A stretch of 64,000 bases of DNA, taken from positions 9,056 to 73,055 of the forward strand of contig JANNQN010000055.1 of the NCBI GenBank assembly GCA_031400775.1, in the 5' to 3' direction. Positions 35,207-62,380 of the stretch are shown here, piece by piece; positions within the stretch are counted from its first letter, which is position 1, and every line of letters starts with the position of its first letter. Below the pieces are notes generated by a model. It saw only the letters and a list, made by a program, of their open reading frames with translations, was not told the origin of the DNA and ran no database searches. The stretch comes from Planctomycetia bacterium. GTDB lineage: Bacteria > Planctomycetota > Planctomycetia > Pirellulales > PALSA-1355. The translations under genes and the position numbers were made by a program.

Positions 35207-37600
35207 TCACGATTGCACGACGGCCGGATCGACGATCGATTCGTCGTCAAAGCTCGCGAGCCGAACTCGGGACTCCGGCGGTCCACCGCCCCCCTGCCCT
35301 CGGCGCTCCAGGAGCGCCAGAAACGCCGGCACCAGAATGGGCCGCACCACGCAGGTATCCAGCATCACGCCCAGCGCCAGGGCGAAACCCAGCTCCAGCA
35401 TGCCGCGCAGGGTGCTGCTCATCATCGAGATGAACGTGCCTGCCATGATGATGCCGCAACTGGTGATGATGCCGCCGGTGCGCGCCACGGCCCGACGCAG
35501 CCCCTCGATCGGTCCTCGCAGGCGCTGCTCTTCCAGGACTCGCGTAACCAGGTAGATGTTGTAGTCTTCACCCACCGCGATCAGGATGACGAACAAGAAG
35601 ATGGGTACCTTCCAGTCCAGCCCGTGATAGGCCTCGCCGTACAGCCAGGAAAAATACACCTGCGTCAGGCCGATCGTGACAAAGTAGCTCAACAGCACCG
35701 ACAAGATCAGGTACATGCACACCAGCGGCCGCCGCAACAGCACGATCAACACCGCCAACACGGCCAGCACGACCAGTTTCTGAATCAGCCAGCGGTCGCT
35801 TTCGGTGACCTGCGCCAGATCGCGAATGCCGACGGTCGTGCCCACGTAGGCGAATTTCGTGCCCTGCCAGGGCGAGCCGGGTTCGTCGCGCAAGCCGTCG
35901 AGAAACCGCTCGACCCGATCGAGCGTCTGCAAGGCCTGGGGCGAAAAGGGCTCGTCGCGAAAGACCAGATCGAAACGCGCTACGTCGCCGGCCAACTCCG
36001 GCACCTGCGTCAAGAACCGGGACTTGGTGATCTTGTGCCGCCGGGCTGCCAACTTCTTCAGCCCGCTCGAACGAAACGGCTGAAAGTATCCCGGTGTATC
36101 GCCGGTCGGCTCCGACATGCTGCGCACGGAGGAAATGCCATCGAGTTCGTAGAATTGCTTGGTGAGCCGTCCGATTTCGCGCTCGCCGTCGGGCTGGTTG
36201 AAATGTGCATCCTGCTTGAGCGCCAAGACGGTGATCGGCGCCATCTCTCCGGCCGGAAAATGCCGCTTGGCCAGTTCGGCCCCTTGGACGCTCGGCGAGC
36301 TGGGCTCCAACTCGCTGAGAAAGTCGTACGTCAGCTCGACCGAAAGCCCTCGCCAGGCCATCGGCGCCAACAGCAACAGGCTGGCCACGAGAATTAAACC
36401 GGGATGCGAAGTGATGACGCGACTGGCCCACTCCCAGAAACGATTGGCGGGCCGCTCATCCGTCTCCTGCTGCTCGAGCGTGCCAGTCCGCCGGGCGCGA
36501 ACGCCAAATGGCCAGAACACGGCCCGTCCACTGGCGCGAAGCAGGGCAGGGGCCAAAGTCAAGCAGGCCAACAGCGTAATCGCCAGGCACACGGCGATGG
36601 CCGGCCCGCTGTTGCGAAACTTGCCGAAGTCGGCGAAGTACATCGTGCCCAAGCCGACAATCGTGGTCATGGCGCTGCCGACCAGCGCGCCGCCGACGCG
36701 TCCTACCGCTTCGGCCGCGGCCGTCGCCTGATCCAAGCCGCGCTCCAGTTCTTCTTTGTAGCGCGCGATCAGAAACAGGCAGAAATCCGTGCCGGCGCCA
36801 AACAAGATCACGACGATGAAGATTTTCGTGGTGGTAAAGACCTTGAAGTTCCACCATGAGAAACCGTCGACCTTCGAAACCTGCGTAGCCAGCGCCAAGA
36901 TGTCGATCGAAACGAACAACGACACGCCGATCGTCACCAGTGGAATCGATACCAACAGCGGAGCCCGATAAACGACCAACAAGATGATGATCACCAGGGC
37001 CACGGTGATCAGCTCGGTGCTCTTGATGCTCTCGGCCGCGGAGCGGAGCATGTCGCCCCCCACGGCGGCCGGACCGCTGATGCCGACATTCAAGCCCGCA
37101 GGAGCCTTCTCGCGCGACTTGGCCAGCAGTCGCTGCACTTCCTCGATCAAGACGATGTTGCCGGCGGCCATGAACTCGTTCTTGATTTGCAATAGCGTGA
37201 CCGCGGCCTGGCCGTTGGCGCTTACTCGGCTGGTGAGCTTGTCGCCGATGACGTCGGTGTTTCGATTGCGGACCTCGACGATCGGCAGTTCGCTTTGATG
37301 CTGACGGAACAGTTCAGCCAGCGAGTCGGACCAAAGCAGATCGGCCGGCGACAGCGGGCCGTCGGGCCGCTCGACCACGACCGCCATTTCGCTTTTGCTC
37401 AACTGCGCGGGAAAGGCTTGGTTCAGCAGCCGCTCGCCCTCGACGCTGGGGAGCGAGGCCGGAAGGTAGGCCAGATCGCCGTCGTGCGTGACGTCGTTCC
37501 AGCGCGGCGCGACGCGGTGAAGCCCCACCGCCAACAGCAACCAACAAACGACCACCAGGGCCCATCGTCGCGCAATCAATGCCCCCAGCCAGTCGAACAT
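35207..37600 (-). CDS. MMPL/RND-superfamily transporter
   Basis: ATG at 37600 gives 797 aa. Two blocks of ~6 TM helices are separated by large soluble domains. 'GTDFCLFLIARYKEEL' and 'GEDYNIYLVTRVLEE' are the duplicated MMPL motifs. Confidence 0.85.
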   Translation of the reverse strand: MFDWLGALIARRWALVVVCWLLLAVGLHRVAPRWNDVTHDGDLAYLPASLPSVEGERLLNQAFPAQLSKSEMAVVVERPDGPLSPADLLWSDSLAELFRQHQSELPIVEVRNRNTDVIGDKLTSRVSANGQAAVTLLQIKNEFMAAGNIVLIEEVQRLLAKSREKAPAGLNVGISGPAAVGGDMLRSAAESIKSTELITVALVIIILLVVYRAPLLVSIPLVTIGVSLFVSIDILALATQVSKVDGFSWWNFKVFTTTKIFIVVILFGAGTDFCLFLIARYKEELERGLDQATAAAEAVGRVGGALVGSAMTTIVGLGTMYFADFGKFRNSGPAIAVCLAITLLACLTLAPALLRASGRAVFWPFGVRARRTGTLEQQETDERPANRFWEWASRVITSHPGLILVASLLLLAPMAWRGLSVELTYDFLSELEPSSPSVQGAELAKRHFPAGEMAPITVLALKQDAHFNQPDGEREIGRLTKQFYELDGISSVRSMSEPTGDTPGYFQPFRSSGLKKLAARRHKITKSRFLTQVPELAGDVARFDLVFRDEPFSPQALQTLDRVERFLDGLRDEPGSPWQGTKFAYVGTTVGIRDLAQVTESDRWLIQKLVVLAVLAVLIVLLRRPLVCMYLILSVLLSYFVTIGLTQVYFSWLYGEAYHGLDWKVPIFLFVILIAVGEDYNIYLVTRVLEEQRLRGPIEGLRRAVARTGGIITSCGIIMAGTFISMMSSTLRGMLELGFALALGVMLDTCVVRPILVPAFLALLERRGQGGGGPPESRVRLASFDDESIVDPAVVQS

Positions 37601-37816
37601 GCACCGCACTTCCCGTGGATTCGTGAATTGCCGATGGCTCTGGTTCAAGAGAGCCCGCCCACGAATACAAATCCTAGCGGTTTGCGAAGGCAAATCCAAG
37701 CTGCCGGGTGCTGGCAAATGAGCGCGACGGGCCATCCTACTGGGAAACTACAAGACGGCGGCCACTCCTTGTCACGCAAATGTCGGATGATGCTTTGCGA
37801 TCCAGGCCTTAACATC

Positions 37817-38212
37817 TTAGTGAAGCGTCTTAGCCTCCTTGAGAAGCTCGGTTGCATCCGTCGCCGAGACAACTCCCTCTGAATCATAGGCCAGATCGTT
37901 TCGCTTGCGACGGCAGCGATCGAGGTAGTCGGCGGTCTTATTGACGGATGAGCCAAGGGCGAGCTTCAGGGCCTGGAAAGTCGCTTGATGAGCGCCCTGG
38001 CCCTTCACCCTGTAGCCCGCACACGCAACGGCCATTTTTGCGGCAAGGAGAGCGGCCTGATAGGCGATGGAAAAGCGATTATCCGCGGAGAGCTCTTTGA
38101 TCGCGGCGTCACCTAAGTTCCGCTCAATGGCTGCACGCAGGTCATCGAGCTCGGCTTTGCTCGTGACGTGCGGTTCGACGCGGCCTTGATTTTGCAAATT
38201 CTTCCAAGTCAT
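37817..38212 (-). CDS. HEPN-like helical protein, putative partner (toxin) of the upstream nucleotidyltransferase
   Basis: 131 aa from ATG 38212; predicted all-alpha. 'RCRRKRNDLAYD' resembles the HepT 'RNxxxHxY' motif but has Tyr where His is expected. There is also 'RVKGQGAH' (R-x6-H). It overlaps the upstream gene by 71 nt. Confidence 0.5.
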   Translation of the reverse strand: MTWKNLQNQGRVEPHVTSKAELDDLRAAIERNLGDAAIKELSADNRFSIAYQAALLAAKMAVACAGYRVKGQGAHQATFQALKLALGSSVNKTADYLDRCRRKRNDLAYDSEGVVSATDATELLKEAKTLH

Positions 38213-38786
38213 GTTCGGCGCCTGCAACGAAGATTTTCTCTTTTGCAAGCACTGACCGCAAGAAGTGATTTTTGCGTCCGAGCTTCTCGGCAAAATCGCT
38301 AGGGGAATAGACCGTCACATTGACAGGTCGACCCAGGCGACTCTCGGCTTTTGCGAGAGCAGGAGTGAGGCCGGAGAGCGTGGTTCGGCCGACGAGCAAC
38401 AAATCAACATCGCTCCCGGAGCGCTCTTCGCCCCTGGCGACTGAGCCATGGACGAAGGCGACCTTGATCGACTTCGAGTGTGGGCGGAGAACATCGCGGA
38501 GAACATCCACAAGCCCCACCGTCTTCGTCAATAGGCTCCGCAGCTCCGGCAACAGGGGGCATTCCGGGTTTGCCGCGAAATAAGCTCTGTTTCCCTCGGT
38601 CCACTTTTTGAGGATCCCCGCCTGGACAAGCGACGCTAGCGGCCGTTGCAGGGTTGAAGGCGTGCGAGTGAGGCGTCTTGCCAGGTCATGCAAGTACCAC
38701 GGCTTCTCCCGTTCCAGCAGCAGGGCGGTTAGTATCTCCTGGACGGACCTGGAGAGCAGGGGGTCGAGGGAGTTTCCTGTACGCAT
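38142..38786 (-). CDS. winged-HTH-fused minimal nucleotidyltransferase (MntA-like)
   Basis: N-terminal wHTH 'WYLHDLARRLTRTPSTLQRPLASLVQAGILKK'. NTase motif 'HGSVARGEERSGSDVDLLLVG'. The ATG at 38786 lies 8 nt downstream of a near-consensus -10 box. Confidence 0.8.
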   Translation of the reverse strand: MRTGNSLDPLLSRSVQEILTALLLEREKPWYLHDLARRLTRTPSTLQRPLASLVQAGILKKWTEGNRAYFAANPECPLLPELRSLLTKTVGLVDVLRDVLRPHSKSIKVAFVHGSVARGEERSGSDVDLLLVGRTTLSGLTPALAKAESRLGRPVNVTVYSPSDFAEKLGRKNHFLRSVLAKEKIFVAGAEHDLEEFAKSRPRRTARHEQSRAR

Positions 38787-38794
38787 AATACGTA

Positions 38795-38823
38795 AGTATA
38801 GACGCAAAACGCGTACATGTCAA
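38795..38823 (-). promoter_or_regulatory. near-consensus sigma-70 promoter TTGACA-N17-TATACT driving a probably leaderless MNT/HEPN operon
   Basis: The minus strand reads TTGACA (38823-38818), a 17-nt spacer, TATACT (38800-38795), then tacgtatt + ATG (38786). The spacer and downstream bases contain the palindromes ACGCGT and TACGTA. Confidence 0.55.
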
Positions 38824-38892
38824 ACGTTTTCATTCAGCAGTCGGGGGGTGCCATGTAGGTCGAAGCTGGCAAAAGAGCAAAAGCACAAAGGG

Positions 38893-39912
38893 CTACTTGA
38901 ACCGCTTCCTTAGCACCCACATCACCGCACAAGCGAAGATCGCTAGCAGTGCGGAACTTGGCTCAGGGACGGTTGCCACGCGGAATCCAATACCGGCGTC
39001 CTCGCCCACCGGGAGGATGTCGAACCGGCGCGAGGACCGCAAGTCGCTCGCGATGCCGACCCACAAACCACCCCGCAAACCCCGACGCGAGCCGCTAATC
39101 AAGGCTTCGTTCCACTCAATTAAGTTGCCCCCTTGGTCCGAAGTGCCGTAGAAGCTCTCGCTCAACGGTCCGGCGCTGCCGACGGTCGTCAAGTTGCCAT
39201 TCTGGCTGTTCCAATCAGCGCCTGCGTTGTAGTTGGCGACGTTGGCCCCCGGATTGCTGATGTCGCCTACGCTGTTGGCGGTGGCGATCGTGGGCGCGTT
39301 GTTGCTGCGCGTGGGATAAAGCCAGTAATCGTCCGCATCGCCACCCTGCGCAGCCGGCTGATGGTGGGCCGCCTTGTACCACTCGTTTTCGCTGGTCAGA
39401 AACCACGTCGCGCCGCCGTTGCGAGTGATGCTCAGACCGTTGCTGGGCGTGGGCGTGCCGCCTAAGAGCGTGTACGCGCCAGTTTCCGTGTCGCCGGTCC
39501 CCTGCCCGTTGTGCAGCCAGTTGGCAAAGCGGATCGAATCGTACCAACTCACATGGTTCACGGGCTTGTCGCCCATATCGGTCGTCGCGGCGTAGGTAAA
39601 GCTGCCGCTGACGCCACTGCGCGTGATCCCGCCCCTACGTATTAACAAGGTGCCCATACTTGTGTTGTACAGGGCCAACGGATCGCTGGCGGCCTTGGCG
39701 TTCAAGAACTCGGAGTACTGGGCGTTGGTCACTTCCGACGTGCCGATGTTGTAGGCATAGCCGACGCCGCCGTACAAGTTCCCAGTTGATGGGTCGTTGG
39801 CGTTGCCCGCATTGCCGACGGGGACCGTGTCGATCGTGACGGCCGAAGTCGCCAGCGGCGCGACGAGGAACGTCGCACAGAGAAGAATTAGCGAACAGAG
39901 AATGCGGGTCAT
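38893..39912 (-). CDS. formylglycine-generating-enzyme (SUMF1/EgtB/PvdO) family domain protein with a PEP-CTERM anchor
   Basis: Signal peptide 'MTRILCSLILLCATFLVAPLATSA'. 'PVNHVSWYDSIRFANWL', 'RGGLWVG'. C-terminal 'VPEPSSALLAIFACAVMWVLRKRFK'. Confidence 0.85.
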   Translation of the reverse strand: MTRILCSLILLCATFLVAPLATSAVTIDTVPVGNAGNANDPSTGNLYGGVGYAYNIGTSEVTNAQYSEFLNAKAASDPLALYNTSMGTLLIRRGGITRSGVSGSFTYAATTDMGDKPVNHVSWYDSIRFANWLHNGQGTGDTETGAYTLLGGTPTPSNGLSITRNGGATWFLTSENEWYKAAHHQPAAQGGDADDYWLYPTRSNNAPTIATANSVGDISNPGANVANYNAGADWNSQNGNLTTVGSAGPLSESFYGTSDQGGNLIEWNEALISGSRRGLRGGLWVGIASDLRSSRRFDILPVGEDAGIGFRVATVPEPSSALLAIFACAVMWVLRKRFK

Positions 39913-62090: not shown

Positions 62091-62209
62091 CTAATTTGTC
62101 GTTCGCTGCGTGTGCAGCAACGCCTGAAAGGCCGGCAAAAACCGGTGCGCGTCGTTACCAACCGCCCGTGAGACTATGCCGTGGAAACTGAGAGTTGTAG
62201 GAAAACAAG

Positions 62210-62282
62210 AGCGGGTGATGGGATTCGAACCCACGACAACGACGTTGGCAACGTCGTGCTCTACCAACTGAGCTACACCCGC
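62210..62282 (-). tRNA. tRNA-Gly (anticodon GCC)
   Basis: Hand-folded cloverleaf: acceptor GCGGGTG/CACCCGC, D-arm GCTC-AGTTGGTA-GAGC. Anticodon arm CGACG-TTGCCAA-CGTCG; T-arm GTGGG-TTCGAAT-CCCAT. Discriminator U; CCA not encoded. Confidence 0.92.
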
Positions 62283-62352: not shown

Positions 62353-62380
62353 ATTATAGAGGCGCCTTGTACCCTGACAA
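62353..62380 (-). promoter_or_regulatory. near-consensus sigma-70 promoter TTGTCA-N16-TATAAT upstream of tRNA-Gly (and possibly tig/clpP)
   Basis: The minus strand reads TTGTCA (62380-62375), a 16-nt spacer and TATAAT (62358-62353). It lies about 70 nt upstream of the tRNA 5' end. Confidence 0.5.

Follow-up and report, generated by a model that had tools for sequence, protein, structure and literature searches.

PDC-M05 is a phage-defence candidate of the PADLOC collection that emerged from a guilt-by-embedding study (10.1101/2024.01.29.577857). It has been described as a nucleotidyltransferase (NTase) accompanied by a HEPN protein, a combination typical of toxin-antitoxin (TA) systems, with its antiviral role awaiting confirmation (PMC12988326). 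In E. coli B, one PDC-M05 representative gave protection from at least one phage among T4, T5 and T7 (PMC12881386). In this work, a locus of this kind was analyzed in a 64,000-nucleotide (nt) stretch of DNA from a Planctomycetia bacterium (assembly GCA_031400775.1, contig JANNQN010000055.1, positions 9,056 to 73,055), the whole of which is termed the window. The locus consists of two genes, both read directly from the minus strand. Gene A (PDC-M05A; 38142-38786) extends from an ATG at 38786 to a stop codon at 38144-38142 and encodes a 214-residue protein with a winged helix-turn-helix (wHTH) and a minimal nucleotidyltransferase (MNT). Gene B (PDC-M05B; 37817-38212) extends from an ATG at 38212 to a TAA at 37819-37817 and encodes 131 residues with a HEPN fold. 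The locus is likely to be a self-contained, horizontally mobile PDC-M05 module, a TA-like pair of the class II MNT-HEPN type in which the wHTH-NTase protein acts as an autorepressor and modifying antitoxin and the HEPN protein as the effector. New in this analysis are the twin-operator architecture of the promoter, its covariation with the recognition helix of protein A, the truncation of gene B and the one-sided decay of B across related loci.

Several described systems resemble this pair in part. In class II HEPN/MNT modules (PF05168/PF01909), the MNT keeps GSX10DXD, the motif defining MntA activity, and the HEPN protein lacks RX4H while keeping a Tyr "which can be adenylylated" (PMC7641770, Yao et al. 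2020). Classical MNT-HEPN modules have been noted to lack a DNA-binding component (PMC2701414, Makarova 2009). In HEPN domains of the AF0298 type, the His is missing from the Rx4-6H motif, and a second strongly conserved, N-terminal His may form an alternative active site (PMC3710099, Anantharaman et al., 2013). In AbiE (type IV TA/abortive infection), a two-gene operon is repressed by its own winged-helix product, which binds paired inverted repeats in the promoter.

Identity of the gene pair

The decisive result came from PADLOC. Protein A matched PDC-M05A (PDLC04368; E = 9.8e-60) with residues 4-197 on positions 4-198 of the 201-position profile, and protein B matched PDC-M05B (PDLC04374; E = 7.8e-48) with residues 1-131 of the 146-position profile; the two genes are adjacent and on the same strand. 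These full-length matches indicated that the pair is an ordinary member of PDC-M05, neither rare nor variant. The family has the same architecture, in which a protein combining an ArsR-like HTH with an NTase precedes a HEPN protein, and no difference was apparent at the family level. This copy differs from PDC-M05 as described in having a premature stop codon in B and in lying among housekeeping genes instead of being embedded in a defence system. An earlier note, made from the sequence alone, had presented the locus as a special variant; the wHTH fusion, the overlap of the reading frames and the R-N-x3-Y motif are, however, all family-wide features found throughout PDC-M05.

Protein A scored above the Pfam cut-offs for NTP_transf_2 (PF01909; 29.8 bits, cut-off of 21) and Polbeta (30.5 bits, cut-off of 26.9), while HTH models of the ArsR/MarR/IclR type matched residues 7-76 below threshold. 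An AlphaFold2 model with a mean predicted local distance difference test score (pLDDT) of 82.6 contained helices at residues 13-25, 32-38 and 43-55 and a beta-hairpin wing at 59-72, followed by a minimal NTase domain; residues 201-214 had a pLDDT of less than 50. Foldseek matched the NTase part to MntA (7bxo_A; E = 3.7e-5) and the MNT 8xeo, with HI0073 (1no5) also among the matches, and matched the N-terminus to winged-helix repressors of the ArsR/MarR type. The combination of a wHTH and an MNT in the upstream protein, as proposed in the earlier note, was thereby confirmed by both family and structural matches. The GS-X10-DXD motif (G114-D128; GSVARGEERSGSDVDLLLVG) is encoded at 38403-38447 on the minus strand and was read directly as an exact match comprising G114-S115, ten residues and D126-V-D128; among 30 homologues of A, G114, S115, S125, D126 and D128 were invariant. 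The recognition helix (residues 43-55; PSTLQRPLASLVQ) is encoded at 38622-38660, minus strand, and precedes the wing in the model. A total of 421 homologues of A were found, typically of about 200 to 214 residues and starting with MR. Protein A is predicted to be both an autorepressor and a modifying antitoxin. The linker of A also contains the peptide DVLR-DVLR, encoded by an exact 12-nt tandem duplication at 38484-38507 (GCGGAGAACATC twice, as read on the plus strand). As the same or a similar peptide is present in close homologues, this duplication is old and not fresh.

The model of the B family (pLDDT of 96.5) exhibited a four-helix up-and-down core like that of solved HEPN domains. The top Foldseek matches in the PDB were all HEPN proteins, namely, AF_0298 (2hsb), HepT, TT1696 and the HEPN domain of sacsin, and the leading entries (2hsb, 7bxo_F, 1ufb, 6m6u_H and 3o10_D) had probabilities of 0.98 to 1.00 and template modelling (TM) scores of 0.53 to 0.74. 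The best match was AF_0298, with TM scores of 0.66/0.74. These results bore out the earlier description of the downstream protein as HEPN-like. A single-sequence search of B against PDB sequences returned nothing meaningful. The family profile reached the PDB entries 9xbd, 9xbc and 2hsb at marginal E-values (0.034 for 2hsb/AF_0298). Chain 9xbd_A is a HEPN protein deposited with an NTase chain, and its motif, LRNRSDYD, has the same R-N-x3-Y-D arrangement as B; 9xbc is the same HEPN protein with Phe replacing the motif Tyr. No publication on 9xbd or 9xbc was found, and any meaning attached to the Tyr-to-Phe entry is our own inference.

The B protein of the window scored 15.3 bits on PF05168 and a full-length relative (P0004) scored 21.0 against a cut-off of 22, and 13 of 87 family members matched this model; the related HEPN_SAV_6107 model (PF18726) matched 48 of the 87. 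No NCBIfam model matched B. Homologues of B carry UPF0332 or SAV_6107 family annotations. The SAV_6107 family is described as actinobacterial, without a stated gene context, whereas the B family is always coupled to a wHTH-MNT protein. Homologues of B numbered 352 in a collection clustered at 90% and 1485 representatives at 50% clustering with an E-value of at most 1e-3.

The HEPN motif of B, R101-R-K-R104-N105-D-L-A-Y109-D110, is encoded at 37883-37912 on the minus strand and takes the form R-N-x3-Y, with Tyr at the position usually occupied by His. The codon for His75, the conserved alternative histidine of the family, lies at 37988-37990 (minus strand). Of 120 close homologues, 118 had the R-N-x3-Y pattern. 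When 89 full-length representatives were aligned with the B protein of the window (n = 90), R104 was conserved in 84, N105 in 67, Y109 in 79 and H75 in 87 sequences. Among 87 diverse family members, R104 was invariant and R101 and Y109 were at least 90% conserved. The full set of conserved polar residues consisted of R31, D35, S42, D44, R46, Y51, Y67, R68, H75, R101, R104, N105 and Y109. The earlier note had called the motif "His-less" and treated this as variation; Tyr is the norm of the family and H75 is almost always kept, so the term is misleading. The motif that it had listed, RRKRNDLAYD, is indeed present, but the 131-residue protein carrying it is a truncated allele of a 146-residue protein, the premature stop codon having been missed. 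With Y109 at the His position and H75 conserved on the N-terminal side of the motif, B has the pattern of the AF0298-type domains. By analogy with these, the active site of B is probably formed by His75 with Arg104 and Asn105 and acts on RNA, or else B binds RNA without catalysis.

Comparisons with the described systems were consistent with a class II assignment. As in class II modules, the MNT (PF01909) gene is upstream and retains GSX10DXD, and the HEPN protein lacks RX4H but has a conserved Tyr; B matches PF05168 weakly, below the cut-off, and PF18726 more strongly. Classical MNTs differ in being shorter than 150 residues and in lacking a DNA-binding domain, whereas the MNT of this family carries a wHTH in cis and its reading frame always overlaps that of the HEPN protein. 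The type VII HepT/MntA systems (Shewanella SO_3166/SO_3165 and the Aphanizomenon and Legionella HEPN-MNT pairs) share the gene order, NTase fold, catalytic motif and a HEPN-fold partner. In HepT, however, the motif is RX4HXY, with the Tyr two residues after the catalytic His, whereas the R-N-x3-Y motif of B places Tyr where the His would be, and the conserved His, H75, lies elsewhere; relative to R104, position +5 is not His and position +7 is not Tyr. Furthermore, MntA has no wHTH. Neither protein had a Pfam match to DUF86 (PF01934) or NTase_sub_bind (PF08780) at an E-value of 1 or less, and A scored 24.9 bits on the NCBIfam MntA model NF047752 against a cut-off of 60. These findings indicated that the pair is not a bona fide type VII HepT/MntA system; of the earlier assignment to a type VII or defence module, what stands is membership in a TA-like, candidate-defence family. 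Neutralization by AMPylating a Tyr close to the motif is likely to be a logic shared with HepT/MntA, as judged by analogy. The AF_0298/UPF0332 "HEPN-T" protein (2hsb) shares the R-x4-Y motif with B, in the form LREESDY, and likewise has a His upstream of it; the sequence similarity is marginal. The resemblance to AbiE lies in wHTH autorepression at paired inverted repeats and in the presence of an NTase-fold protein in the pair. In AbiE, however, the NTase (DUF1814, AbiEii) is the toxin and the wHTH protein (AbiEi) is separate, whereas here the wHTH and NTase belong to a single protein with a HEPN partner; neither protein had a DUF1814/AbiE match in Pfam or PADLOC.

Conservation and decay of gene B

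Related loci were examined in two sets: a genome set of 80 loci chosen by a homologue of A, from Planctomycetota, Acidobacteriota, Eisenbacteria, Armatimonadota, Proteobacteria and Zixibacteria metagenome-assembled genomes, and a metagenome set of 80 loci chosen by a homologue of B. Gene B followed A in about 72 of the 80 genome loci, representing at least six phyla, while an intact A was located upstream of B in 65 to 66 of the 66 assessable metagenome loci and was never absent. In most loci, B starts at nt 575 of A, with an ATG or GTG inside the conserved H-D-L-E codons of A. The two open reading frames (ORFs) of the window overlap by 71 nt as called, in agreement with the earlier note. Overlaps in related loci were 23 to 116 nt long, most often 29, with the variable C-terminal tail of A setting the length, and an overlap of 71 nt was common to eight other loci. 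The 71-nt overlap is a normal state in the family and not a peculiarity of this copy.

Among the approximately 78 assessable loci chosen by an intact A, B was deleted, frameshifted, stopped, truncated or C-terminally replaced in about 15 to 16 (∼20%; L002, L004, L005, L010, L019, L020, L027, L046, L052, L053, L056, L058, L066, L069, L071 and L073). Counted by locus, this asymmetry (15/79 versus 0/66) gave a Fisher P value of ∼6e-5. The pattern suggests that B is a costly partner, as toxin-antitoxin logic predicts.

The B gene of the window is itself interrupted. A TAA is present at codon 132, giving 131 residues, while nearly all homologues have 146 residues and the same MTWK start. This codon is AGA in the two syntenic relatives (L081 and L082), both of which have a full-length B, and encodes Lys or Arg in other homologues. 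The cut-off remainder (37772-37816, minus strand) consists of 14 codons, DVKAWIAKHHPTFA, and the ancestral TGA at 37774-37772; it keeps the reading frame and is almost identical to the C-terminal end of the 146-residue homologues, for which the family pattern is ...LH(K/R)DVxAWIxKxHPxxx. As these 14 codons after the stop are undecayed, the nonsense change looks recent; the TAA could also be a sequencing or population variant.

It is quite possible, though we consider it somewhat short of probable, that the locus is now a decaying relic in which the nonsense codon has inactivated B and left A as an orphan, self-repressing DNA-binding protein without toxin or defence activity. The change from AGA to TAA relative to the syntenic relatives is consistent with this possibility, as is the extent of the loss: the last helix of the model spans residues 117-141, so the truncation removes residues 132-141 (about 10 helix residues), and the last 15 residues of B include the moderately conserved V134, W137, H142 and P143. 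The truncated B also falls below a Pfam cut-off that its full-length relative passes (PF18726, gathering threshold of 27.2; 23.1 bits for the truncated B and 29.8 bits for P0004, which is 90% identical), and decay of B beside an intact A is common in the family. Against inactivation, the truncated protein retains the region of the catalytic motif and all four core helices, a few homologues (P0033 and P0076) naturally end at 130-133 residues, and the change looks recent or could be the sequencing or population variant just mentioned. Gene A and the operators are intact despite the truncation. Inactivation of B concerns the present state of the locus and is compatible with the ancestral mechanism proposed below.

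An unlikely alternative is that A and B together form a two-subunit nucleotidyltransferase in which B is a nontoxic substrate-binding or regulatory HEPN protein, the complex modifies a small molecule or a third macromolecule and the wHTH serves only for autoregulation. The models for such an enzyme are HI0073/HI0074 and the C-terminal domain of kanamycin nucleotidyltransferase. HEPN domains without Rx4-6H are typical of NTase-attached substrate-binding domains (PMC3710099), antibiotic nucleotidylation has been left open as a function of MNT-HEPN pairs (PMC2701414, Makarova 2009), and HI0073 was one of the structural matches of A. A further point in favor comes from plasmid pLPP of Legionella pneumophila Paris, where a homologous pair is directly followed by a gene of the aminoglycoside adenylyltransferase family. 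The conserved polar constellation of B would, however, be unexpected in a passive domain. Moreover, loss of B in about a fifth of loci with A persisting, and never the reverse, fits a costly partner, and one PDC-M05 system has given protection against phage.

Promoter and twin operators

The promoter of gene A and two candidate operators are interleaved on the minus strand. The −35 hexamer, TTGACA (38818-38823), was detected by direct reading and by a promoter scan. It is followed by operator O1, TACGCG-TTT-TGCGTC (38801-38815), a candidate with two mismatches to TACGCA-N3-TGCGTA that fills the spacer between the −35 and −10 elements. The −10 hexamer, TATACT (38795-38800), lies exactly between O1 and the second candidate operator, O2, TACGTA-TTA-TGCGTA (38780-38794). 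O2 has one mismatch and holds both the ATG of A, at operator positions 9-11, and the expected transcription start. The spacer between the −35 and −10 elements is 17 nt, the −10 element is 8 nt from the ATG at 38786 and the centers of O1 and O2 are 21 bp apart. This agrees with the TTGACA-N17-TATACT promoter of the earlier note; the short palindromes that it had taken for operators, ACGCGT and TACGTA, are present but are only fragments of the two 15-bp dyads.

Matches to the sigma-70 consensus at 11 of 12 positions are rare in the window, with two detected on both strands of the 64 kb and 0.05 expected in first-order Markov simulations. The other match, TTGTCA-N16-TATAAT (62353-62380, minus strand), is located ∼70 nt upstream of tRNA-Gly(GCC) (62209-62282) and is probably the promoter of this tRNA gene, suggesting that the organism uses promoters of this kind.

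The position of the promoter constrains the start of the mRNA. As the −10 element abuts O2, a transcription start 7 to 9 nt downstream would lie 0 to 2 nt from the ATG, leaving no room for a Shine-Dalgarno sequence. The predicted near-leaderless mRNA and rejection of the TTG at 38807 as a start codon, both proposed in the earlier note, are well supported by comparison with relatives: of 98 unique promoter regions from the genome and metagenome loci, 91 have the ATG at O2 positions 9-11, and the N-termini of the family begin with MR. The right half-site of O2, ATGCGTA, overlaps the start codon, which accounts for the invariance of M1-R2 in protein A. The next in-frame start codon available to A, a TTG at codon 32, would remove helix 1 of the wHTH. 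To the extent of our search, no description of a twin-operator, near-leaderless promoter was found in the PDC-M05 literature.

The layout was nearly universal upstream of A in the related loci, consisting of a TTGACA-like element, 2 to 3 nt, the O1 dyad, a 6-nt −10-like hexamer and the O2 dyad. In 62 of 81 loci, a −10-like hexamer was enclosed by two dyads spaced exactly 21 bp apart, and in most related loci the O1 dyad was at −29 relative to the ATG. In the 98 unique promoter regions, which come from several phyla, the hexamer between the dyads matched TATAAT at four or more of six positions in all 98 and at five or more in 79, and the −35 element matched TTGACA at four or more positions in 71.

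The operator sequences also varied in step with the recognition helix. Proteins with the helix P-S-S/T-L-Q-R were associated with TACGCA dyads, those with G-x-G-A/S-x-Q-R with TACCCA-N3-TGGGTA at both O1 and O2, and those with H-H-A-T-L-Q-R (two loci) with GCTGC-N5-GCAGC at both sites. Variant operator pairs (GCTGC-N5-GCAGC, GACGC..GCGTC and TACCCA-N3-TGGGTA) occurred in L008, L009, L021, L030, L065, L067, L069 and L075-L080; the two operators changed jointly and together with residues 43-47 of A, forming a small natural series of specificity swaps. This covariation is the strongest evidence that protein A reads O1 and O2, and the predicted binding points to autoregulation, the role that the earlier note had suggested for the wHTH. 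Upstream of the pLPP pair there is another palindrome, TTGAAGC-N6-GCTTCAA, and again only a few nt separate a −10-like box from the ATG.

It is highly improbable that the promoter and palindromes reflect chance, another regulator or an RNA structure, with expression by read-through from the upstream gene and translation from TTG 38807: a same-strand gene does end 70 nt before the −35 hexamer, an MRLYLRI start has been called in some homologues and the three dyad matches in the window, taken alone, are not significant against 1.7 expected, but the layout is fixed across the unique regions and covaries with the recognition helix, the dyad background (two or fewer mismatches) is 17 sites in 815 kb of DNA flanking the related loci, there are no Rfam matches to a structured RNA in 37000-39500 and MRLYLRI is simply the translation of the −10 box and O2 in a family whose N-termini are MR.

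Genomic setting, mechanism and significance

Evidence of mobility came from relatives. Similarity to a nonsyntenic relative with 81% protein identity (L001) starts exactly at the −35 hexamer, and homologues were present in 26 plasmid records, including 18 predicted conjugative plasmids. On the Legionella plasmid (L167; NC_006365.1, 88231-91758), the pair consists of LPP_RS15985, a wHTH-MNT protein of 192 residues, and LPP_RS15980, which has 145 residues, is annotated as "DNA-binding protein" and carries RKQRNIADY and GHHQT.

In the window, the neighbors of the module encode glutamine synthetases, an MMPL transporter, an FGE-sulfatase-like protein, an S41 peptidase and planctomycete-typical DUF1501/PSD1 proteins, the FGE-like gene being the one upstream of A on the same strand. 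Both syntenic relatives have the same gene order, with the S41 peptidase, the FGE-like gene, A, B, MMPL and GSIII in succession. The GC content is 0.565 to 0.595 over 37600-39000 compared with mostly 0.61 to 0.67 in the flanks, so the locus is modestly A/T-richer, as the earlier note had remarked; comparable dips occur elsewhere in the window (e.g., 0.57 at 36800-37199). The 842-residue MMPL ORF starting from the ATG at 37735 (37600-37735, minus strand) is probably overlong. Calls in the syntenic relatives are of 797 residues, which corresponds to a Met at ∼37600 (MFDWLGALI...), and this shorter start leaves a noncoding gap of ∼170 nt after the module that is well conserved between relatives. 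A 14-nt direct repeat with 13 of 14 positions identical, GCTGGCAAA[T/A]GAGC, brackets the module at 37710-37723 and 38865-38878. It was considered as a target-site duplication and rejected; the downstream copy is not conserved in the two syntenic relatives, about 0.3 such pairs would be expected by chance according to our own estimate, and the repeat is probably a chance occurrence and not an insertion scar. A 24-nt inverted repeat with 79% complementarity, located upstream of the promoter (38858-38881) and near the start of B (38234-38257), is possibly also due to chance. Integration next to a tRNA gene was likewise rejected, the sole tRNA being 23 kb distant.

Several points weigh against the interpretation of the locus as a working PDC-M05 module. 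The O1 of the window is a poor copy of the operator whose two mismatches leave an imperfect dyad. Foldseek E-values for B are weak (0.04 to 0.33), though the probabilities are high and the HEPN matches consistent. The decay asymmetry counts loci and not independent events, and many of these loci are from closely related Acidobacteriaceae. Two settings were considered and rejected: a defence island, the neighbors being housekeeping genes, and a phage-borne module, as 2.9 million viral contigs contained only four distant relatives and a phage collection gave a single weak match. It is by analogy that nucleotidylylation of class II HEPN proteins, its acceptor residue and a possible RNase activity are proposed. 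Finally, B is truncated here, so the effector arm may be weakened or dead and the module may be nonfunctional in this organism.

For the PDC-M05 module as we favor it, the following mechanism is proposed. The near-consensus sigma-70 promoter would drive an mRNA with a leader of 0 to 2 nt, as the sequence and its comparison with relatives suggest. Protein A, probably as a dimer, would bind O1 and O2 through its winged helix and from the same face of the DNA, in keeping with the covariation; as the operator centers are two helical turns apart, an occupied operator would block RNA polymerase and the operon would repress itself. By analogy with related pairs, the NTase of A would hold B inactive through nucleotidylylation, with Tyr109 as the probable acceptor, and unmodified B would harm the cell either by cleaving RNA at a site formed by H75, R104 and N105 or by binding RNA. 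Phage infection or loss of A would then release B. That all of these elements hold together as a distinct, self-contained design, with one protein acting as both autorepressor and modifying antitoxin, a Tyr at the canonical His site being nucleotidylylated while catalysis has moved to H75, and an ATG within the operator of a leaderless mRNA, is put forward tentatively, and we regard the complete combination as rather doubtful.

For the window, these results mean that the locus should be annotated as a PDC-M05/class II MNT-HEPN module with a truncated HEPN gene. The family gains a 15-bp operator consensus with candidate reading residues, a promoter arrangement from which leaderless expression is predicted, candidate residues for catalysis (H75, R104 and N105), a candidate acceptor (Y109) and genomic evidence of a cost of B. 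The fusion also answers the remark made on classical modules (PMC2701414), the DNA-binding component here being fused to the MNT. PDC-M05 is widespread and mechanistically uncharacterized, and the pLPP pair of L. pneumophila Paris provides a homologous pair in a culturable host. If the combined design is correct, expression signals that are independent of a Shine-Dalgarno sequence could help the cassette to work after transfer between distant phyla. Furthermore, if DNA binding by A also responded to B or to nucleoside triphosphate levels, transcription and toxin neutralization would be coupled in one polypeptide.

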